Below are positions 8,441-45,951 of a stretch of 64,000 nucleotides of DNA, in pieces; position 1 is the stretch's first letter, and each line of letters opens with the position of its first letter. A program made the position numbers and the translations under genes. The DNA is taken from the NCBI GenBank assembly GCA_017456005.1, contig JAFTLJ010000037.1:7808-71807 (forward strand), in the 5' to 3' direction. The notes below the pieces were generated by a model. The model was not told where the DNA came from, did no database searches, and worked only from the letters and a program-made list of their open reading frames with translations. This DNA comes from Clostridia bacterium. Lineage in GTDB: Bacteria; Bacillota; Clostridia; Oscillospirales; CAG-272.

Positions 8441-8639
8441 CGCGATTTTTCAGAAAAAATAAAAAAAATAAAAAAATTTTTGAATTTTTGTCACACTTGC
8501 TATGTTTTTTCCGTATATATAGGTGAAGGGGAAAAACAAGAAACCAATTGAAGCAAATTGTAAACTTTTTAAATTCGATTATTATTTTGTTGCAATTTTT
8601 GCAATAAAGTGATAAAATAAATTAAAGGAGGACATCGTA

Positions 8640-8813
8640 ATGAAAAGGATGTTCAAATCAACCATAAGTTTATTGCTCATAGCGGCGTTTCTGCTGACAC
8701 CGCTTGTGGGCACCACAGCTTCCGCAAGTGATGAGTTTGATATGCTTAAATACTATGAATATTGGTGTGATGAATGCTTAACTAAAATAAAAAATAATGC
8801 AAATAAATATTGA
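8640..8813 (+). CDS. small secreted peptide precursor (57 aa; predicted 28-aa mature CxxC peptide)
   Basis: Below the ORF-track size cut-off. AAAGGAGG lies 7 nt upstream of the ATG at 8640. Translation is MKRMFKSTISLLLIAAFLLTPLVGTTASA|SDEFDMLKYYEYWCDECLTKIKNNANKY, with TGA at 8811-8813. Confidence 0.6.
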   Translation: MKRMFKSTISLLLIAAFLLTPLVGTTASASDEFDMLKYYEYWCDECLTKIKNNANKY

Positions 8814-8831: not shown

Positions 8832-9482
8832 ATGAAAAAATCAATTTTAGCAATAATGCTTCTTGTATCGCTTTTACTTTGTTCCTGCGGAAATACGGGA
8901 AATGTTCAAACAACTGCTTCCACAACACAAACTTATCCCGATCCCGCAGATATCGATTATTCTACTGATTTACATTTTAAAGATTTTTCTGAAATGTGTG
9001 CGGATGAGAGCTTAAAAGAATTTTCGGAAGGACAAAAAATCTCCTTGTTCAATTATATAGACGGAGATATGATAACACCCAAGGGCTTTAAATCTGCAGG
9101 GAGTCTTAATTTTTCAATATTTAATGATCTGGTAAACGGCGAAGATTTGGTGGCGACGGGCGAGCATTATATAGAGCTTTATTTTCATGAAGAATCCTGT
9201 AATTGCTATAATGTTTTGTGCCAGCCCACAGGTTTAAGATATAATATCTGGTATGAGCCGGATGGACTTGAAACAGATCTTAAGGATGATGAAAAGATTT
9301 CTGAAAATCATTATGCATACAAAGTTGCCATGGGGTACATTACTCATATTTTTATGGTAAATGAACGGTGCAGAATAATGTTTTCTCTGCCAGAAGCGCT
9401 TGAAAACTATGATGCTGTGCTCGAAGACGTGGAAGCATATGCGGATTACTTGCGTGTTTCTATTGCAGAGGATGAAAAATAA
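8832..9482 (+). CDS. lipoprotein, unknown function
   Basis: AAGGAG SD. Signal peptide with lipobox LLLCSC|G. AT-rich. Confidence 0.75.
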   Translation: MKKSILAIMLLVSLLLCSCGNTGNVQTTASTTQTYPDPADIDYSTDLHFKDFSEMCADESLKEFSEGQKISLFNYIDGDMITPKGFKSAGSLNFSIFNDLVNGEDLVATGEHYIELYFHEESCNCYNVLCQPTGLRYNIWYEPDGLETDLKDDEKISENHYAYKVAMGYITHIFMVNERCRIMFSLPEALENYDAVLEDVEAYADYLRVSIAEDEK

Positions 9483-9510: not shown

Positions 9511-10113
9511 ATGTTAGGAAATTTTTTTATAAAAAACAAAATTATATCTTTAGCTTGCATACTTTGTATGCTTGTGAGTTTGATTTCGTCGTGCGGTAAC
9601 GTGAATACCGGTGATATTGTTACCACTACTTCTCCTTCATATGAAGTTACGCCTATTTTCCCGAAATTTCACAATATAAATGATTTTGCGGAGGCTGTAC
9701 AGAACAAAGACAGCGAAGTTTCTAAATATATCAATATAGAGAATATGAACGATATAATTTATCCCGAAATAAAAATAGAGGGCTATTCTCTTGTTGAAAT
9801 AATTGTAAATTACAATATATACAGTTATTATTTTTATCCGGAAGAGCTTATAGAAGATTTTTATATTATCGATGACAAATATGATTGTGTTATAAATGTT
9901 TTCCAAAACAGCAATGGTAATTTAGATGAATTTCTTTCTCAAAACTATAAATATGTAATACTTGAAGACGGAACAAGGTACTGCGAGGCAGACAGAGAGT
10001 TTTATTTTTCCTATAATAACAAAATATGTTGTCTTACGTATCCCGAAACATACACAGGTGAAGTAGATATCGAAAGTTTTATTGAAATGAAGAATATGCT
10101 TATTGAGGAATAA
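9511..10113 (+). CDS. lipoprotein, unknown function
   Basis: Start chosen at the ATG at 9511, giving MLGNFFIKNKIISLACILCMLVSLISSC|GN (lipobox). The ORF-track start at 9400 overlaps the upstream gene; 9472 is an alternative. No clear SD. Confidence 0.65.
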   Translation: MLGNFFIKNKIISLACILCMLVSLISSCGNVNTGDIVTTTSPSYEVTPIFPKFHNINDFAEAVQNKDSEVSKYINIENMNDIIYPEIKIEGYSLVEIIVNYNIYSYYFYPEELIEDFYIIDDKYDCVINVFQNSNGNLDEFLSQNYKYVILEDGTRYCEADREFYFSYNNKICCLTYPETYTGEVDIESFIEMKNMLIEE

Positions 10114-10150: not shown

Positions 10151-10250
10151 TATTTTTGCGCGGAAAAATAAAAAAATTTACAAAATATCTTTCCTTTTGG
10201 GGCGCTTTTGTGGTATGCTTATAATGCGAATAAAATTTTTGGAGGACGTT

Positions 10251-10961
10251 TTGAAAAAGAACTCTGTTTTGTATCATATTTTCGGGCTTTTCCTTGTGCC
10301 CGCGCTGCTTGTGTGTGCGTTTACCGCCGTAAGCTCTCTCGGTTATGCCAACTATGAATATCTGCCCTCTTCTTTTGAAAGAATAGGCGACGTTTTCTTC
10401 TATATTTCCACGTACGCCGTGGAAATACTGCTGTTTTTCTGCGTGGGCGCTTTCTGCTTTGCGCTGTATGAAAGAAACGCGCTTTCTGCCGTGCTTTGCG
10501 CCGTTATCTCTCTTTTCCATGCCGGCATTTTGCCTATGTGTATGTTCTTTATGCGCAGTCTTTTTCTTTCCGCATACACATCTGCTGCCGTAATGGATGA
10601 ATATTGGAGCTACGATGTATACAGTGCTATGTCCAATTCCACCCGTGTGGGCGTCGGTCTTGCCATAGCTTTGGTTGTTGCGCTTGTTTTCACGCTGAGA
10701 AAGAACAGTACGGAATTTAAAAAGCCTTATATCACCCCAAAAAGCGAGCCTGCTGTGGCGGCTATCGCATTTTTTGCGGCCACCGTTATATTTTCCACGC
10801 TTGTGTTCACTCTCGGCGGCACGTACAGCCACGATGAAATAATAGCGCTTATAACACAGATAATTTTTGCGGCCGCAGGTTATTTTGTGGTTATACTCGG
10901 GGCGTACGCTCAAAAATGTTTTGGTTCTAAATGCGTTATGGATAATTTGAATAAAAATTAA
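10251..10961 (+). CDS. polytopic membrane protein, unknown function
   Basis: TTG at 10251 lies 5 nt after GGAGG. TATAAT at 10220-10225. About 6 TM helices. Confidence 0.6.
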   Translation: MKKNSVLYHIFGLFLVPALLVCAFTAVSSLGYANYEYLPSSFERIGDVFFYISTYAVEILLFFCVGAFCFALYERNALSAVLCAVISLFHAGILPMCMFFMRSLFLSAYTSAAVMDEYWSYDVYSAMSNSTRVGVGLAIALVVALVFTLRKNSTEFKKPYITPKSEPAVAAIAFFAATVIFSTLVFTLGGTYSHDEIIALITQIIFAAAGYFVVILGAYAQKCFGSKCVMDNLNKN

Positions 10962-38641: not shown

Positions 38642-40522
38642 TCAGGTTACAAGACCTGCGCTTTGCTTGTTGTAGAGCTTGGAGTATTCTCCGCCCTTCT
38701 TGATAAGCTCTGCGTGGTTGCCGGATTCCGCTATCATACCGTCCTTGAGAACGATTATTACGTCGGCATCGCGTATGGTAGAAAGGCGGTGGGCGATGAT
38801 GAATGTTGTTCTGCCTTTCATAAGGTTTACCATAGCTTTTTGAATGTTCATTTCCGTGCGCGTGTCTACAGAAGATGTAGCTTCATCCAAAATGAGTATT
38901 TTCGGGTCTTCCAAAACGGCGCGCGCTATGGCGAGCAGCTGGCGCTGGCCCTGCGAAAGGTTCGTGCCGCCCTCGGAAAGCTGTGTGGCATAGCCGTCCG
39001 GCAGGCGCTCTGTAAAGTGGTCTGCCATAGCGGTGTCTGCCGCCGCTTTAACCTGTGCGTGTGTGGCATCTATTTTGCCGTAGCGTATATTGTTCTCTAT
39101 GGTGTCGCCCCAAAGCACCGTGTCCTGCAAAACTATGGACGTGTGGCGGCGCAGGCTTTGCTTGGAAATTTTCGTTATATCTACGCCGTCTATGGTTATT
39201 TTGCCGCTTTGCGGCTCGTAGAAACGCATAAGCAGGTTGATGATTGTGGTTTTGCCGGAGCCCGTGGCGCCTACTATGGCTATTTTCTGCCCGGGGGAAA
39301 CGGAAAGCGAGAAGTTTTTAAGCACTGTTTTTTCGGGAACGTAGCCGAAATATATGTTTTGGAACTCTATTTTTCCTTCCATTTTTTCTGTATCCAGCTC
39401 ACGCACACCATCGTTTATTTCATCGGGCTCGTCCATAATGGCGAAGATGCGCTCTGCACCCGCCAAAGCCGTCATAATAGTGGAGTATTGGTTTGCTATC
39501 ATATTTACGGGGTGGGTGAACTTTTTGGAATAGAGAAGTATAGACTGTATCGTGCCGGGGGTGAGCCCTGCGCCGATGGGCAGGTGGTTGAACTTAACCA
39601 TAAGCACGCCGCCCGTTATTGCGAGAAGCACATACTGCAGGTTGCCCAGAAAGTTCATAATAGGACCCATAAGAGATCCGAAAACACGCGCTTTTATGGT
39701 GCATTTGCGCAGCTTATCGGCGCTTTGTGCAAAATCTTCCACGGCGGCTTTTTCTTTGCCGTAGGAAACGACGGTGCGGTAGCCGGAAACCATTTCCTCT
39801 ACGTGCGTATTGAGCTTGCCGAGCAGCTTTTGCTGTTCTGTGAAATATTTGCGCATAAACTTGGCAAGGTTTGTGGAAACGAGCACTGTAAGCGGTATGG
39901 TGATCAGCGCGATAAGCGTCATAAGAGGGCTGAGGTAGATCATCATGGCCGCAACGCCCGCGAGCGTGATTATGGCAGAGAAGAGCGTGGAAACCGACTG
40001 CGAAATAGCGTTGGAAACGTTTTCTACGTCGTTTGTCATACTGCTCATCATATCGCCGTGGCGATGGCTGTCTGTATAGCTGATGGAAAGGTGGGAAATT
40101 TTTGCGAAAAGGTCGCCGCGCATACGGTAGACCGTATTTTGCGCCAGCTTTGCGGAAAGCAAGCCCTGCACGTAAGTTACCACAGCGCTTGCGGCGAAAA
40201 TTATGCCCATAAGCACGAGGTATTTTTTCATTTCCTCTAAGTTTACGGTGAATTTGCCGTCTACTATCTTGATAGTGTCTATGGCTTTACCCTGGAGCAT
40301 GGGGCCGAGTATATCTGCGCCCGTAACCACTAGCACGAGCACTAGCAAGGTTATGAGTATGGCACGGCTTTTGCCTATGTAGGAAAAGAGGCGGGCGAGC
40401 GTTTTGCCAAGGTTTTTTGGCTTTTGCGCGTTCATTCTTGCGCCCATAGGGCCGCCGGGGCCGCCGCCCGGTCTGCCCACGTTCGGCATATTGGAGGGGG
40501 GAGCTTTTCTTTCTTCTGCCAT
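38642..40522 (-). CDS. ABC exporter, fused permease/ATPase (heterodimer subunit)
   Basis: 6-TM domain. Walker A GATGSGKTT, signature LSQGQRQ, Walker B ILILDEATS. Gly/Pro-rich N-terminal extension. Confidence 0.92.
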   Translation of the reverse strand: MAEERKAPPSNMPNVGRPGGGPGGPMGARMNAQKPKNLGKTLARLFSYIGKSRAILITLLVLVLVVTGADILGPMLQGKAIDTIKIVDGKFTVNLEEMKKYLVLMGIIFAASAVVTYVQGLLSAKLAQNTVYRMRGDLFAKISHLSISYTDSHRHGDMMSSMTNDVENVSNAISQSVSTLFSAIITLAGVAAMMIYLSPLMTLIALITIPLTVLVSTNLAKFMRKYFTEQQKLLGKLNTHVEEMVSGYRTVVSYGKEKAAVEDFAQSADKLRKCTIKARVFGSLMGPIMNFLGNLQYVLLAITGGVLMVKFNHLPIGAGLTPGTIQSILLYSKKFTHPVNMIANQYSTIMTALAGAERIFAIMDEPDEINDGVRELDTEKMEGKIEFQNIYFGYVPEKTVLKNFSLSVSPGQKIAIVGATGSGKTTIINLLMRFYEPQSGKITIDGVDITKISKQSLRRHTSIVLQDTVLWGDTIENNIRYGKIDATHAQVKAAADTAMADHFTERLPDGYATQLSEGGTNLSQGQRQLLAIARAVLEDPKILILDEATSSVDTRTEMNIQKAMVNLMKGRTTFIIAHRLSTIRDADVIIVLKDGMIAESGNHAELIKKGGEYSKLYNKQSAGLVT

Positions 40523-40523
40523 T

Positions 40524-42341
40524 TTACAGCACCTCCTTTTTGCCGTATTCGCGCATCTGGGAATTGTAGATGTCGCGGTACGTTTCGCTTATTTCAAGCA
40601 GCTTTTCGTGTGGGGCGACGTGAAGTATGGAGCCATCGTTTTCTATAACGGCTATTCTGTCTGCCTCCATAACGCTGGCAATACGCTGTGCCACCATAAC
40701 AACAGTTGTTTCGGCAGAGCTTTCGCGCACAGCCGTGCGGAGCTTTGCCTCTGTTACAAGGTCGAGCGCGCTTGTGGAGTCGTCTAAAATAAGTATTTCG
40801 GGCTTGCGCACGAGCGCACGGGCTATGGACACACGCTGTTTCTGGCCGCCGGAAAGGGATGCGCCCTTTTCAGCTACAAATGTGTCGTAGCCATCGGGGA
40901 AACGAGAGATAAATTCATCTGCCTGCGCGATTTTTGCCGCCGCCAGCACTTCTTCGTGCGTGGCATCGGGCTTGCCCCAGCGGATATTACCCTCTATTGT
41001 ATCGGAGAAAAGCTCGCTTTTCTGCATAACGTAACCTATTTTGGAGCGCAAAGCGTCGAGGTCGTGCTCTTTTATGTTTATACCGTCTATAAGCACCTCG
41101 CCCTCTGTGGCATCATAGAAGCGGGGGATAAGATATACGAGCGAAGATTTGCCGCAGCCTGTGGAGCCGATAATGGCGAGGGTTTCGCCCTTCTTGATAT
41201 CGAGGTTTATGTTTTTAAGCACGGGTCTGCCGTGTGTGCCGGGGTAACGGAAGGAAACATCGCGGAAGGAAATCGCTGTTTTATCCGGGGAAGCAGTTTT
41301 CCTGCCGCTTACGATAACGGGCTTTGTGGAAAGTATCTCGTTAACACGCTTTGCGGAAGCGCCCGCACGGATGATGGATTGGAAAATATTCGTAGCCATC
41401 ATAACGGACATAATTACCTGTGTTATATAAGTGATTGCCGCCATAATATCGCCCGTGCTCATGCCCGCGCTCTCTATGCTTATGTTAAAGCCGCCTATGT
41501 AGATTACAGCGATGATGGAAAAGTTCATTATTATAGTAAGCACGGGGGAGATTATTGCCATTGTGGTGAGCGCTTTTAAGTTTTCGTCGCGCAGGGCGCT
41601 GTTTGCTACGTCGAAGCGCTGGCATTCATAATCCTCGCGCACGAAGGCTTTTACCACGCGCGCGCCGCCTATGTTTTCGCCCACAACAGAGTTTACTTTG
41701 TCCAGCTTCTGCTGTATACGCGTGTAGATGGGTGTTACGCGTATGAGCACGCCGATAACCACAGCCAGCAGCACGGGTATGGCACAGAGCAGCACCGTGG
41801 TGAATTTGAGGTCCAGCATAATTATCATAAACGTGCCGCCGATGATGAACATGGGGGAGCGCACAAAGCCGCGCATTATCATTTCGAAAAATTCCACCAC
41901 TATGGAAATATCGTTTGTCATTCTTGTGATGATAGAGCCCGTGGTGAATTTATCCGTCTGCTCTATTGAAAGGGACATAACCTTGCCGTATGCATCTCGG
42001 CGGAGGTCGTAGCCGAGGCCGTGCGCCGCTTTTGCGGAGGTGTATGCACAGAACATGCCGAAAAAGCCGCCGAGAAGCGTTATAAGAAGCATGGTTATGC
42101 CGAAGGTGACGATTATATCTACTTGCGTGTAGTGTTCGCCGAAGATGAAGTTAAGTATACCCGCGGCGAGCTTATCGCCCTTTTCGGGGTCTGTTACCTT
42201 TATGCCCTCTATGCCGTAGTTTACGATGTATTTCATAAAGTTCGGCAGGGAAAGGTCTGCCGCAACCTCTGCCATCATCATAAGCGGGGATATGATGGCG
42301 AGAAACCAATAAGGCTTCAGGTATGAAAACATTTTTTTCAT
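40524..42341 (-). CDS. ABC exporter, fused permease/ATPase (heterodimer subunit)
   Basis: GSTGCGKSS, LSGGQKQR and ILILDDSTS motifs. Separated from its partner gene by 1 nt. Confidence 0.92.
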   Translation of the reverse strand: MKKMFSYLKPYWFLAIISPLMMMAEVAADLSLPNFMKYIVNYGIEGIKVTDPEKGDKLAAGILNFIFGEHYTQVDIIVTFGITMLLITLLGGFFGMFCAYTSAKAAHGLGYDLRRDAYGKVMSLSIEQTDKFTTGSIITRMTNDISIVVEFFEMIMRGFVRSPMFIIGGTFMIIMLDLKFTTVLLCAIPVLLAVVIGVLIRVTPIYTRIQQKLDKVNSVVGENIGGARVVKAFVREDYECQRFDVANSALRDENLKALTTMAIISPVLTIIMNFSIIAVIYIGGFNISIESAGMSTGDIMAAITYITQVIMSVMMATNIFQSIIRAGASAKRVNEILSTKPVIVSGRKTASPDKTAISFRDVSFRYPGTHGRPVLKNINLDIKKGETLAIIGSTGCGKSSLVYLIPRFYDATEGEVLIDGINIKEHDLDALRSKIGYVMQKSELFSDTIEGNIRWGKPDATHEEVLAAAKIAQADEFISRFPDGYDTFVAEKGASLSGGQKQRVSIARALVRKPEILILDDSTSALDLVTEAKLRTAVRESSAETTVVMVAQRIASVMEADRIAVIENDGSILHVAPHEKLLEISETYRDIYNSQMREYGKKEVL

Positions 42342-42817
42342 TTATTGTTGCCTCTCTTTCGTTCGGGTGGACCGTATAATTTTGCTTCCTCGCCGAATTT
42401 ATAGTCCCAATCGGCGAGCAGCTTGTTCATAAGGTTTTCCAGCGTTGTCAGTTCCTCAGATGTGAGCGAAAGCATCATTTGTTTAACAGCTTCCTGCTGC
42501 TTTACCATAACCTCTTCCGTGATTTTTCTGCCGTTTTCCGTTATGGTAACGTTTATATTGCGCTTGTCGTCGTCGTGGCAGGTGCGCACTATAAGCTCTT
42601 CGCTTTCCATCTTTGCCAGAATATCGCTGGCAGAGGAGGGGCGGATGTTCATTTTCTCCGCAAACACCTTTTGCGTTATCGTGCCGGAATCGTAGAGTAT
42701 GCGCAAAGCGCGGTCGCGCCCCGGTTTTTCGAAAAAACGGTGAAAAATATAATGCGCATACTTTTCCATAAGGAAAATAACGCGCGTTTTTTGCTCTAAA
42801 TTTTCGTTTTCTGTCAT
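42338..42817 (-). CDS. MarR-family transcriptional regulator
   Basis: ATG at 42817 follows AAAGGAGC. Winged-helix region QKVFAEKMNIRPSSASDILAKMESEELIVR. Overlaps the first ABC gene by 4 nt. Confidence 0.85.
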   Translation of the reverse strand: MTENENLEQKTRVIFLMEKYAHYIFHRFFEKPGRDRALRILYDSGTITQKVFAEKMNIRPSSASDILAKMESEELIVRTCHDDDKRNINVTITENGRKITEEVMVKQQEAVKQMMLSLTSEELTTLENLMNKLLADWDYKFGEEAKLYGPPERKRGNNK

Positions 42818-43018
42818 TTTTTGCTCCTTTCTGAAATTTTTACATAATAATATGATACACCCGTACACAAAAAATGTCAAGGTATCTAACAAAAAACTTT
42901 CGGTATCGAATGAATTTTGCGGCTGATCTGTAAAAAATGTTTTTTGGAAAATTTTTTCTTTAATTTATGTTACGTCAGCGAAAAAAATGGTACTATATTA
43001 GTGAAAGGGGGCACTTTT

Positions 43019-43576
43019 ATGAAAGACAGCGATATTGTAGAGCTTTATTTCGCACGTGATGAGCGTGCCATAGAAGAAACAGAGCGAAAATACGGGCGGT
43101 ATTGCCGAACGGTTGCATATAACGTTTTCGCAAACGAGGCAGATGCGGAGGAAACCGTGAACGATACGTACCTCGGCGTGTGGAACATCATTCCGCCTCA
43201 AAGGCCGCGCATTTTTTCCGCATTCCTCGCGAAAATAACGCGCAACCTCGCGCTGAAAAAACAGCGCGCAAAGTCGGCTCAAAAGCGCGGTGGCGAAGCG
43301 GAGCTTACGCTTTTGGAGCTGTGCGAATGTGTGCCCGATGAAAGCGACGTGGAAAAAGAGCTTGAGGTGCGCGAGCTTTCCGCCGTAATAGATGCATTTC
43401 TGCGCGAGCTGCCCGAAACCGAACGCCGCGTTTTTATGCGTAGATATTGGTATATGGATAGCATAGACGACATCTGCCGCGCACACGGCTTTACCGAGGG
43501 CAAGGTGAAGATGCTCCTTTCACGCACGCGAAAGAAACTTTTGGCAAGACTTATGAAGGAAGGTGTTAACTTATGA
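43019..43576 (+). CDS. ECF-type sigma-70 family RNA polymerase sigma factor
   Basis: Region 2 (EETVNDTYLGVW) and region 4 (ERRVFMRRYWYMDSIDDICRAHGFTEGKVKMLLSRTRKKL). ATG at 43019 follows GAAAGGGGG. Confidence 0.88.
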   Translation: MKDSDIVELYFARDERAIEETERKYGRYCRTVAYNVFANEADAEETVNDTYLGVWNIIPPQRPRIFSAFLAKITRNLALKKQRAKSAQKRGGEAELTLLELCECVPDESDVEKELEVRELSAVIDAFLRELPETERRVFMRRYWYMDSIDDICRAHGFTEGKVKMLLSRTRKKLLARLMKEGVNL

Positions 43577-44997
43577 AGATAAAAAAAGGCGAAAAATTGC
43601 AGGACGCCATAGGTATGGTGGGAGATGACCTCGTGGCAGAGGCGGCGCAAGCGCCCAAAAAGGCAAAATCAAGGCGCAAGATTTGGGTTTCCGCGCTGGC
43701 GGCGTGCCTTGCGCTGTGTATAATAGCTTTTGCTGTTCTGAACCCGTTTGAGCCCGCCGTGGGCAACGCATACGCGCTCGTTCTGGCGGAATACCCCGAA
43801 ACGCCGCGTTACCCGGGTAGTTTTAATTATGATTCACCGGAATACGAAGCTTGGAGCGAAGCCAGAAGCGAACGCTGGGCGAATATTGAAAACATAGATG
43901 TGGAAGCGTTTACGGCTTTTATAGGAAAGACGGTGCCCGAATTTTTGAATACGGAAAACGGCGAAAACGCGATATATTCGCCGCTTAACGTATATATGGC
44001 GCTTGCGATGATGGCGGAAAGCTCAAGCGGAAACAGCCGAAAACAGATACTTGAGCTTATGGGTATGGAAAACATAGAGGCTTTGCGCAAAAACACGCAC
44101 GCGCTTTGGTGCTTGAACTATATGAATGACGGTACGTCTACCTGCATACCCGCAAATTCCGTGTGGCTCGACGATGGCGCGGCGTTTAAAAAATCCGTGC
44201 TGGAAACACTTTCCGAAAAATATTACGCCTCCGTTTTTCGCGGCGAAATGGGTTCGGAGGAATACAACGAGGCTTTCAGGGCTTGGCTTAACGAGCAAAC
44301 GGGCGGTCTTTTGGAAGATCAGATAGGCGAAATGGGCTTTTCGCCCGAAACGGTTATGGCGCTCGTTTCCACACTGTATTTCAAAGCGCCTTGGCAAAAT
44401 GAATTTTCGGAAGAAAATAATATAAAAGGAATTTTTTATACACCGAGCGGCGAAGCGGAATGCGAGTTTATGAATAAGACATACGTGGATTCATATTATT
44501 ATCTGCCTAAATTTTCTGCGGTTTCGCTGAATTTCAAAAACAGCGGAAAAATGTTCTTTGTGTTGCCCGACGAGGGGTATACGCCCGAAGACCTGCTGGC
44601 AGACGTGGATTTTGCGGATTTTGTGGCGTATGGCGGTTCTGCTTCGCCATATAAGAACGTTATAGTGAATCTTTCCGTGCCGAAATTTGACGTTTCCGAT
44701 GAAACGAGCCTTAAAGAAGGCTTGCAAAACCTCGGTGTAACGGATATTTTCGACAGCTCCAAGGCAGATTTCGGAATACTTACGGGAAAACCGCTTTTCG
44801 TAGCCTCTGCCAAACACAGCGCAAGAGTTGTTATAGACGAAAAAGGCTGCGTGGCTGCGGCAATAACGCTTCTTGAGGTAGGCGCAGGCATACCCGATGA
44901 CGAGGTTGATTTCGTGCTCGACAGACCTTTTATATTCGTTATAACGAGCGACGCCGGCTTGCCGCTTTTTGTGGGTATTGTAAACTCGCCGAATTAA
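43573..44997 (+). CDS. membrane-anchored serpin with short sigma-partner-type N-terminus (candidate anti-sigma)
   Basis: ATGA start/stop overlap with the sigma gene. Residues 1-35 cytoplasmic (LQDAIGMVGDDLVAEA...KKAKSRRK), then TM WVSALAACLALCIIAFAVL. Serpin body: IYSPLNVYMALAMMA, LYFKAPWQNEF, hinge EKGCVAAAIT and DRPFIFVI. Confidence 0.85.
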   Translation: MKIKKGEKLQDAIGMVGDDLVAEAAQAPKKAKSRRKIWVSALAACLALCIIAFAVLNPFEPAVGNAYALVLAEYPETPRYPGSFNYDSPEYEAWSEARSERWANIENIDVEAFTAFIGKTVPEFLNTENGENAIYSPLNVYMALAMMAESSSGNSRKQILELMGMENIEALRKNTHALWCLNYMNDGTSTCIPANSVWLDDGAAFKKSVLETLSEKYYASVFRGEMGSEEYNEAFRAWLNEQTGGLLEDQIGEMGFSPETVMALVSTLYFKAPWQNEFSEENNIKGIFYTPSGEAECEFMNKTYVDSYYYLPKFSAVSLNFKNSGKMFFVLPDEGYTPEDLLADVDFADFVAYGGSASPYKNVIVNLSVPKFDVSDETSLKEGLQNLGVTDIFDSSKADFGILTGKPLFVASAKHSARVVIDEKGCVAAAITLLEVGAGIPDDEVDFVLDRPFIFVITSDAGLPLFVGIVNSPN

Positions 44998-45003
44998 GCT
45001 TTT

Positions 45004-45031
45004 AAGGGACGGTTTTACCGTCCCTTCTTTG
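45004..45031 (+). terminator. rho-independent terminator
   Basis: AAGGGACGG-TTTTA-CCGTCCCTT hairpin followed by CTTT. Confidence 0.7.
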
Positions 45032-45108
45032 GTACGCTTACGGCTTTTTACCTTGACGGGGCACGGGAAAAGTGTTAGAATAAAGAAAAGCTCTCTTTCG
45101 AGGTAATT

Positions 45109-45951
45109 ATGGAAAACAGAAAAATTATAAACGATATACTTATGTGCCCCGTGTGCGGCGGCAGACTTTTGCTTACGGCAGACGGCAGAAGCGCCGCGTG
45201 CGACGGCAGAGGGAAACGCCACCTTTTCGATTTTGCTTCGGGTGGATATATAAACCTATATACCTCCCGTGCGGCGGGCGGCGACAGCGCCGAGTGCATA
45301 AACGCGCGAAATGCGTTCCTTGCAAAGGGCTACTACGAAAAAATTTCCGATGCCGTGAACGCACTTTTGGATAAATATGTTGGCGCAGGCGCGCGCGTGC
45401 TGGACGCAGGCTGCGGTGAGGGGTATTATACGAACAGAATGGCGGCAGAGGGAAACAATGTTTTTGGCTTTGACCTTTCCAAGGCAGGCGTGAACACGGG
45501 CGCTAAAGCGGCAAAGCGTGCCTCTTTGCCCTCTTTCTTTGGCGTGGCGAGCGTTTTTGCCTTGCCTGTACTTTCCGGCAGTATGGATGCCGTTACCACT
45601 ATCTTTGCCCCATGCGCAGAGGAGGAATATGCGCGCGTTCTGCGCGAAAACGGCATACTGCTGCTGGCAGGCGCCGGCAAAGAGCACCTTATCGACCTAA
45701 AAAAAGCCATATACGATTCCGCATATGAAAACGAGGGCAGACGCGACCTGCCCACGGAAAAATTCGAACTTTTGGAGGAAACGAGCGTAACGTACGATAT
45801 AACGCTCGAAAGCGCCGCCGATGTGCAGAACCTTTTTGCCATGACACCGTATTTCTACCGCACCTCGCAGAAGGACAAGGAGAAATTGCATACAATTTGT
45901 GAACTTTCCACAAAAATAGACGTGGAATTATTTATATATAAGAAAAAATAA
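45109..45951 (+). CDS. RlmA/RrmA-type 23S rRNA (guanine-N1)-methyltransferase
   Basis: N-terminal Zn ribbon CPVCGG...C..RGKRHLFDFASGGYINL and SAM motif VLDAGCGEGYY. Promoter TTGACG-17-TAGAAT at 45053-45081. Confidence 0.85.
   Translation: MENRKIINDILMCPVCGGRLLLTADGRSAACDGRGKRHLFDFASGGYINLYTSRAAGGDSAECINARNAFLAKGYYEKISDAVNALLDKYVGAGARVLDAGCGEGYYTNRMAAEGNNVFGFDLSKAGVNTGAKAAKRASLPSFFGVASVFALPVLSGSMDAVTTIFAPCAEEEYARVLRENGILLLAGAGKEHLIDLKKAIYDSAYENEGRRDLPTEKFELLEETSVTYDITLESAADVQNLFAMTPYFYRTSQKDKEKLHTICELSTKIDVELFIYKKK

Follow-up and report, generated by a model that had tools for sequence, protein, structure and literature searches.

Pairs of extracytoplasmic function (ECF) sigma factors and anti-sigma factors are among the major means by which bacteria read their environment, and the signal is unknown for most of them. 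In the SigV-RsiV system of Bacillus subtilis, Enterococcus faecalis and Clostridioides difficile, the ectodomain of RsiV binds lysozyme, which unmasks a signal-peptidase site (PMC4183432, PMC5014341, PMC6066255); the site-1 cut by signal peptidase is followed by RasP cleavage, and the operon is autoregulated (PMC4183432, PMC5014341, PMC6066255, PMC9044953). The paralogous SigI-RsgI pairs of Clostridium thermocellum and its relatives carry interchangeable extracellular sensor modules (PMC10328401; discussion of PMC7826278). Among bacterial serpins, tengpin of Thermoanaerobacter tengcongensis possesses an N-terminal extension which clamps the metastable native state and whose place is taken by s1A on loop insertion (PMC1905895), and serpins of gut Clostridia inhibit elastase-type proteases (PMC5127057, PMC13376542). 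A stretch of 64,000 nucleotides from a Clostridia bacterium (assembly GCA_017456005.1, contig JAFTLJ010000037.1, positions 7,808 to 71,807 of the forward strand), hereafter the window, harbors a two-gene unit in which an ECF sigma factor gene overlaps the gene for a membrane-anchored serpin. This unit joins a known signalling architecture to a proposed sensor domain of a novel kind and to a previously unannotated tail family.

The sigma factor gene (43019..43576, + strand) encodes a protein of 185 amino acids and the gene that follows it (43573..44997) one of 474 amino acids, with the four bases ATGA (43573-43576) shared between them: these hold the start codon of the second gene as well as the TGA stop codon of the first (43574-43576). 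The ATG of the sigma factor gene at 43019 is preceded by AAAGGGGG. The 474 amino acid product comprises a 36-residue cytoplasmic tail, a single transmembrane helix and a full serpin domain. A preliminary description, made from the DNA alone, had reported a sigma factor gene ending within the start codon of a serpin gene, approximately 35 cytoplasmic residues, one transmembrane helix and a complete serpin with the hinge EKGCVAAAIT, the loop LLEVGAGIPDDEVD and the motif DRPFIF. All of these elements are confirmed by the reading of the open reading frames, the tail being placed at residues 1-36 and the helix at residues 37-58 with the expected bias in basic residues, and the Serpin, Sigma70_r2 and Sigma70_r4_2 families of Pfam were each matched above their cut-offs. 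Seven bases past the serpin stop codon, the operon is closed by a terminator-like hairpin (45004..45026, + strand) with a 10-bp stem (AAGGGACGGT/ACCGTCCCTT). It was missed by a simple terminator scan, and its folding energy of -17.8 kcal/mol (z=-3.7) was matched by none of the shuffled sequences (0/200).

The sigma factor, here designated type A, contains the Sigma70_r2 (residues 24-86; E=1.4e-8) and Sigma70_r4_2 (residues 124-174; E=1.3e-9) regions and scores 70.7 bits against the sigma70-ECF model TIGR02937 (E=1e-19; cut-off 42.9). With only the sigma-2 and sigma-4 regions and a length within the expected ~160-200 amino acids, it belongs to the ECF (group 4) sigma-70 factors. It could not be placed in a named ECF subgroup (SigV, SigW, SigM, SigX and others), as all equivalog and subfamily models of NCBIfam scored far below their cut-offs. 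No SigV model is present among the NCBIfam matches listed for the type A sigma factor (the best 25 of 61), and the closest solved sigma structure matched with E=3e-4 only. The serpin gene in turn shows the attributes of a membrane anti-sigma factor gene, being located directly 3′ of the sigma factor gene and encoding a product with a single transmembrane helix and a cytoplasmic N-terminus.

In a scan of one genome per species, relatives of the serpin protein were found in at least 568 genomes, mostly of gut bacteria of animals and humans that belong to the Oscillospiraceae, the Lachnospiraceae or unclassified Clostridia, and the best 80 loci were examined. The Oscillospiraceae isolate B95_20_FP_BP (L010) is among the carriers of a type A pair. 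Orthologs of the sigma factor (phmmer E=1e-38 to 1e-68) are encoded directly upstream of the serpin in 50 of these loci, so that the adjacency is found in at least 50 of the 80 sampled species-level genomes and is not unique to the present one; uniqueness is what the preliminary description had held would count against its proposal. The four-base overlap recurs in 44/50 sigma-linked loci of different species-level genomes and is therefore not due to chance. A search for a third conserved gene around the pair in the 80 loci yielded only antisense shadow reading frames, and hence there is no other anti-sigma candidate and no other conserved sensor gene nearby. The serpin protein has thousands of relatives; among the best 120, the tail and transmembrane helix are present in 119, most of which are full-length (~470-490 amino acids). 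Database names for these relatives do not go beyond 'hypothetical protein', 'serpin family protein' or 'serpin B'.

A hidden Markov model of the tail and transmembrane helix, hereafter the module, detects it in 48/48 scorable sigma-linked serpins, and all 21 serpins which lack the module also lack a type A sigma factor (Fisher p=4e-13). Seven apparent exceptions are accounted for: one carries a long insert, four belong to a second lineage described below (type B) and two match only in the transmembrane region. Most of the sigma-less serpins begin with ordinary lipoprotein signal peptides. In the 80 loci, 50 serpins have a type A, four a type B, 21 a lipoprotein and five another anchor, and these are interspersed on a neighbour-joining tree of the serpin core, with ~16 switches by parsimony. 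On this tree, which is approximate, lipid anchors and sigma-coupled anchors are seen to have replaced one another repeatedly. Several loci contain tandem arrangements, namely serpin-sigma-serpin (L004), sigma-serpin-serpin (L036), two serpins (L028) and serpin-sigma-module protein (L032), and this mixture of sigma-coupled and sigma-free copies within a locus suggests local duplication and anchor swapping. Unusual forms are also observed: in the serpin of L037 (3680-5368), the tail motif is separated from the transmembrane helix by a long repeat rich in Glu, Arg and Gln (ERGEQERRKQ...), P0108 carries the tail motif twice in tandem, and the extracellular tether of P0036 is rich in Ser and Thr and ~50 residues long.

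The cytoplasmic tail of the window protein (residues 1-36, 43573..43680; MKIKKGEKLQDAIGMVGDDLVAEAAQAPKKAKSRRK, including KLQDAIGMVGDDLVAEAAQAPKKAKSRRK) is the proposed anti-sigma domain, on the grounds of its conservation and its co-occurrence with the sigma factor. Its helix carries the family motif K-L-x-D-A-I-G-x-[VI]-x-D-D-L-[IV]-x-E-A, with the variant D-[IM]-[FY]-D-G-[IV]-T-D-I-R-D-D-L-I in some relatives, and is followed by a K/R-rich stretch. The transmembrane helix, as read from the sequence, extends from I37 to P58 (43681..43746; IWVSALAACLALCIIAFAVLNP); AlphaFold2 places a helix at residues 42-56 with low confidence. Six of the ten residues before it are Lys or Arg, compared to one of the 27 after it, and the tail must thus lie inside the cell and the serpin outside (N-in/C-out). 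Mean pairwise identities in the family alignment (A1) are 53% for the tail helix (residues 8-24), 23% for the basic linker (25-36), 42% for the transmembrane helix (37-58), 27% for the tether (59-66), 61% for the A-Y-A...Y-P-E segment (67-81), 55% for the serpin core (119-425), 79% for the hinge (423-432) and 33% for the specificity part of the loop (433-443). As the tail helix is conserved to the same degree as the serpin core (53% vs 55%), compared to 23-29% for the linkers, this pattern argues for a binding partner within the cytoplasm.

Pfam and NCBIfam scans of residues 1-125 returned no family above significance, neither an anti-sigma domain such as zf-HC2, RskA or RsgI_N nor DUF4179, which matched over the transmembrane helix with E=0.23, and the tail has no HxxxCxxC zinc motif. 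It resembles the class I (zf-HC2/RsrA-like) and class II (CnrY-like) anti-sigma domains in forming a cytoplasmic segment before a single transmembrane helix, encoded directly behind an ECF sigma factor gene, but differs from them in lacking a Pfam anti-sigma match and the HxxxCxxC motif and in having about one predicted helix; its short length is presumably comparable to that of class II domains. The tail is probably a member of an undescribed family of anti-sigma modules. Within the cytoplasmic half of the transmembrane helix there is a near-invariant [VIL]-A-A motif (L42-A43-A44, followed by C45, in the window), with A43 invariant and A44 at least 90% conserved in the alignment and [VILM]AA present in 142/149 module representatives. 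Site-2 cleavage of RseA ('...VAA') and RsiW exposes Ala-rich ends which serve as Clp degradation tags, and Ala-rich transmembrane helices are also frequent by chance; the motif is as such a hint of regulated intramembrane proteolysis and not evidence for it.

SigV-RsiV may offer the best model for the working of the serpin pair, since both combine an ECF sigma factor with a single-pass anti-sigma factor that has a short cytoplasmic segment, and since the ectodomain here would likewise engage a signal in the form of a host hydrolase. The two differ in the ectodomain, which has a serpin fold in place of that of RsiV, and in the signal, which here would be a protease engaged covalently and irreversibly whereas lysozyme is bound reversibly; furthermore, sigma factors of the window type reach no SigV cut-off, and the one Pfam match with a relation to RsiV-type proteins is the non-significant DUF4179.

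The module is not restricted to serpins. A 55-column profile of the tail and transmembrane helix, searched against 1.84 billion representatives (50% clustering) at E<=1e-3, matched 5881 cluster representatives, and most of the top matches are serpins or serpin fragments. The module is common among Oscillospiraceae and Lachnospiraceae that live in the guts of humans, mice, rabbits, chickens and ruminants. The highest-ranking match, P0121 (681 amino acids), was set aside: it consists of 11 near-identical repeats (…HEALLQALGEVEPEEVDEAQTW…), was matched through the acidic helix pattern, and in all likelihood is of non-bacterial origin and was picked up spuriously through low complexity. Module proteins with other ectodomains include P0157 (708 amino acids), P0249 (555 amino acids; of the same family as the partner protein in locus L049), P0270 (355 amino acids), P0235, which has a Big_14 domain, and others with no Pfam match. 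The genomic context was read for five such cases, two of them lying within the serpin loci. A 186 amino acid sigma factor of the type A family is encoded directly before the non-serpin module gene, with a four-base overlap, in L081, L082, L085 and the second pair of L049, while in L032 the module partner begins right at the end of the sigma factor gene and is itself cut by the end of the contig. The module is thus attached to at least four types of non-serpin ectodomain behind type A sigma factors. Because it co-occurs with the sigma factor and is reused on unrelated ectodomains, the tail qualifies as an anti-sigma module by the usual comparative criteria, and in all likelihood it stands in a sigma/anti-sigma relationship with the co-encoded sigma factor.

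This modularity recalls SigI-RsgI, in which one sigma family and one conserved cytoplasmic segment are likewise combined with many extracellular domains. However, the sigma factor described here has a canonical sigma-4 region (Sigma70_r4_2) and not the C-terminal domain of SigI, no match to RsgI_N was found in the tail, and the RsgI sensors bind polysaccharides, none of them being a protease inhibitor. The unit accordingly belongs to neither the RsiV nor the RsgI systems. Four further serpin genes begin inside the 3′ end of a sigma factor gene of another ECF lineage, type B (L064, 3522-5482; L065, 3267-5272; L072, 3255-5311; L074, 3363-5260). Their tail follows the pattern M-x-x-Y-K-x-A-N-x-x-I-x-x-P-x-x-L, and their sigma factor, which contains ...WGDMVWRLALARTA..DAEDVFQEVFLRYF..., is not detected in a search with the window sigma factor and scores 58.5 bits against the SigV model (cut-off 190). 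Neither the type B tail nor the non-serpin ectodomains had a significant match in Pfam or NCBIfam, apart from Big_14 in P0235. A likeness of the type B tail to RsiV was considered and dropped. The type B coupling implies that the serpin ectodomain has been recruited to sigma factor control at least twice, independently.

An ECF-type promoter (42968..43011, + strand) precedes the operon in the window, with the -35 element TGTTAC (42968-42973) and the -10 element GGTACT (42989-42994) separated by 15 nucleotides. The -10 element is followed by the conserved sequence ATATTAGTGAAAGG, the AAAGGGGG portion of which doubles as the ribosome-binding site of the sigma factor gene. The corresponding family motif, TGT[GCAT]AC, N15/16 with a T-rich end, (G)CG[TA]CT or ACGGTA and then TATAGGTGAAAGG, was found 5′ of the sigma factor gene in at least 28/44 loci, and fits the Bacillus-type ECF promoter pattern of AAC at -35 and CGT at -10. 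All 28 motif matches scoring >=24 in 85 loci lie directly upstream of a sigma factor gene of the type A family. The window copy scores 21.7, compared to a shuffle maximum of <=17.1, and its form (TGTTAC-N15-GGTACT) represents a weaker variant common to the closest relatives, L001 and L052. The conservation of an ECF-type promoter before the operon implies autoregulation, and the sigma factor would be expected to use this promoter itself.

The stretch after the -10 element (42995-43011; TATAG-GTGAAAGGG) is conserved as strongly as the promoter itself (L004, L007, L008, L009, L014, L015, L022, L049 and others), and in many loci is found 30-60 nucleotides before the start codon, with another Shine-Dalgarno sequence in between; it may represent a conserved 5′ end or a Shine-Dalgarno-like stabiliser of the mRNA. 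A second and stronger copy of the promoter motif is located elsewhere in the window (8489-8530, + strand; TGTCAC-N17-CGTAT-ATATAGGTGAAGGG), with a score of 31.2 against the same shuffle maximum of <=17.1. No sigma factor gene follows it. The genes downstream (8640-8813, 8832-9482, ~9553-10113 and 10197-10961) encode a secreted peptide of 57 amino acids (MKRMFKST...CDECLTKIKNNANKY), two lipoproteins and a multi-pass membrane protein, with no Pfam match in any of them. This site is a candidate regulon target of the window sigma factor or of a paralogue elsewhere in the genome.

Outside the membrane, the variable tether (residues 59-65) and a conserved N-terminal extension (residues 66-118) are encoded at 43747..43926 (+ strand), as delimited by the family alignment and the AlphaFold2 model. 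The extension contains A66-Y67-A68, the invariant residues Y74-P75 (family consensus AYAxAEAxYPEMAxYP) and the likewise invariant W94, and is modelled with predicted local distance difference test (pLDDT) values of 63-91, with a strand at residues 68-70 and a helix at 89-107. It is also kept in the lipoprotein forms of the serpin. The serpin domain (residues 119-474 and stop codon, 43927..44997) matches PF00079 over residues 119-473 with E=1.2e-64, covering positions 9-370 of the 370 in the profile, and its sequence matches in the PDB include conserpin (2e-38) and tengpin (3e-33). The core is modelled by AlphaFold2 (25 sequences) at pLDDT 80-95, and the top Foldseek match is native tengpin (2pee_A; E=1.4e-29; TM-score 0.81). 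The window serpin resembles tengpin in its fold, its inhibitory-type hinge and the presence of a conserved, ordered N-terminal extension before helix A. The extensions themselves share no sequence similarity, however, the alignments beginning at query residues 121-124.

The hinge and reactive-centre loop (residues 423-443, 44839..44901; EKGCVAAAITLLEVGAG|IPDD) were aligned to conserpin, which carries the loop of alpha-1-antitrypsin. P17 is E423, and P1 is G439 by count (VGAG|IP), or A438 by alignment with loops of the alpha-1-antitrypsin type. Over 193 family members, Glu at P17 and Gly at P15 are invariant (193/193 each); P14 is Cys in 125 and Val in 66; Ala occupies P12 in 190, P11 in 161 and P10 in 190, and Thr occupies P8 in 189. 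P9 is aromatic in the family, which is unusual, and uncharged. P2 is Gly in 158, and P1 is Ala, Gly or Ser in 176. The window sequence E-K-G-C-V-A-A-A-I conforms to the inhibitory hinge consensus (P17 Glu, P15 Gly, an uncharged P14 and small residues at P12-P9). The loop is mostly of canonical length in the family, that of the window being one residue below the family mode. Residues 428-440 are left exposed in the AlphaFold2 model, at low confidence, and the predicted fold is nearest to native-state structures. The inhibitory type of hinge and loop assumed in the preliminary description is thus upheld by the family statistics, and its guess of a small P1 residue proved sound. The P1 pattern points to target proteases which accept small residues at P1, and the serpin ectodomain likely acts as a protease inhibitor.

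Siropins, miropin, the Bifidobacterium longum serpin, BMG-1 and tengpin share the same fold, and in the literature searched none is described with an anti-sigma-like tail or a sigma-linked gene. Full-text searches likewise yielded no paper in which a serpin belongs to an anti-sigma factor or has its gene behind that of a sigma factor, although a mention in the supplementary tables of the ECF re-classification paper is possible; the preliminary description had also known of no sigma/anti-sigma system with a serpin sensor.

We suggest that the two genes probably constitute a self-contained ECF sigma/anti-sigma module in which one surface serpin serves as both sensor and effector. The cytoplasmic helix (residues ~8-26) would hold the co-translated sigma factor inactive at the membrane, with the inhibitory-type serpin displayed on the cell surface. 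A serine protease with an elastase- or subtilisin-like preference for small P1 residues would attack the loop, and the serpin would be irreversibly consumed. The spent or clipped anti-sigma factor would then be removed by regulated intramembrane proteolysis, with a first cut outside the membrane and a second by a site-2 protease within the helix, near the conserved [VIL]-A-A. The freed sigma factor would transcribe its own ECF-type promoter, replacing both itself and the surface serpin, and expression would follow the protease load. For the release of the sigma factor by protease attack as such, we judge the balance to tilt slightly in favour. A more specific version, in which the irreversible stressed-to-relaxed transition of the serpin is itself the transmembrane signal, is put forward tentatively and is rather unlikely. 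According to this version, the conserved, tengpin-like extension just outside the membrane (A66-Y67-A68 ... Y74-P75) would be clamped on the body of the native serpin; on cleavage of the loop and its insertion into sheet A, s1A would take the place of the clamp, as in tengpin (PMC1905895), and the freed extension would unmask A-x-A for signal peptidase through gating of the RsiV type (PMC6066255), after which RasP and Clp would free the sigma factor.

Of the one-shot protease sensor pair proposed in the preliminary description, the sigma/anti-sigma hallmarks have stood, in the form of translational coupling, promoter, terminator and the co-occurrence of tail and sigma factor; the link between loop cleavage and release is a proposed one. 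Several points weigh against the sensor-effector scheme. No sequence feature ties cleavage of the loop to release; the second promoter copy at 8489-8530 means that the regulon may reach beyond the serpin and that the self-replenishing loop may be incomplete; Cys or Val stands at P14, where Thr or Ser is usual; the tail of ~35 residues matches neither a known anti-sigma family nor a class I anti-sigma domain; and AlphaFold2 assigns pLDDT <50 to residues 1-64, with only about one helix predicted in the tail. The shortness of the tail, its lack of a known family and its low model confidence would suit a simpler explanation, in which the N-terminus is a mere signal anchor, the sigma factor is controlled transcriptionally or by a factor encoded elsewhere, and its first target is the serpin gene; some ECF groups indeed have no anti-sigma factor. 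However, a cytoplasmic helix kept at 53% identity beside linkers at 23% would be superfluous in a plain anchor, which would not account for the 48/48 co-occurrence with one sigma family, with the sigma factor absent from the 21 copies that lack the module, nor for its reuse, with the 4-bp overlap, on unrelated ectodomains behind paralogous sigma factors. The sigma-less serpins, moreover, mostly have ordinary lipoprotein signal peptides, and mere co-expression is accordingly considered very improbable.

The unusual P14, together with the existence of non-inhibitory serpins, could instead indicate a receptor in which the serpin is a ligand-binding module or plain proteolytic bait, with no covalent suicide mechanism. 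The invariant P17 Glu and P15 Gly argue against this, as do the Ala, Ala and Thr found nearly always at P12, P10 and P8, the Ala at P11 in 161/193 members, a P14 that is never charged and a loop of mostly canonical length. Furthermore, the nearest structural relative, tengpin, is inhibitory (PMC1905895), and the gut Clostridia serpins which have been tested inhibit elastase (siropins, PMC5127057; BMG-1, PMC13376542), although these need not be close kin of the window branch. The chances of such a receptor appear very slim, and it agrees poorly with the data, as does mere co-expression. The main rival retains the tail as a true anti-sigma domain and regards the serpin as cargo, a surface shield induced by envelope or cell-wall stress or by clipping of the tether. 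ECF operons normally autoregulate, so that any ectodomain fused to the anti-sigma factor would be induced along with it, and the occurrence of the serpin ectodomain as a sigma-free lipoprotein in ~21/80 loci suggests a protective role of its own; the variable tether (27% identity over residues 59-66; pLDDT <50 up to residue 64) could be a place of unspecific cleavage. In ECF systems, however, the input is generally received by the extracytoplasmic domain of a single-pass anti-sigma factor, the surroundings hold no other conserved sensor gene, and the recruitment of the serpin to two sigma/tail systems, along with the many swaps of lipoprotein anchors, suggests selection for the coupling itself. 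We therefore hold a pure shield to be unlikely, and prefer the serpin as both sensor and effector.

A serpin sensor would name its own ligand class, the serine proteases, and as such would make the question of the signal directly testable. If the sensor-effector reading is correct, no serpin would have been known before in bacterial signal transduction, nor any sigma pathway that responds to the load of extracellular protease; the sensor would also be the protective effector, and the pair may allow gut cells to both perceive an attack by proteases and respond to it. The gut community is shaped by host elastases and pancreatic proteases, and bacterial serpins from it are being explored against inflammatory bowel disease. 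Should the stressed-to-relaxed version hold, the protein would represent the first bacterial suicide-substrate receptor, in which one protease hit releases one sigma factor, and a widespread means for gut commensals to count the attacks of host or microbial proteases. The 5881 cluster representatives would further constitute a large unannotated family of short anti-sigma tails with interchangeable sensor domains.

Divergent from the operon, on the - strand, are a MarR-family gene (~42338..42817) and two ABC exporter genes (38642..42341; products of 605 and 626 amino acids). The preliminary description had remarked on this adjacent operon, and its position was correct; a tie to the sigma-serpin unit is not supported, as the neighbourhood is not conserved in the 80 loci, and the exporter was rejected as a part of the system because it is specific to this genome. 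The MarR/ABC side (38642-42892) has a good promoter of the sigma-70 type (TTGACA-17-TATCAT, 42880-42852). Downstream of the hairpin, a gene at 45109-45951 (+ strand) encodes an RlmA-like methyltransferase (Methyltransf_25/11) that begins with a zinc ribbon, the Zn_ribbon_RlmA match falling slightly short of the cut-off; this gene has a promoter-like site of its own at 45053-45081 and is unrelated to the module.

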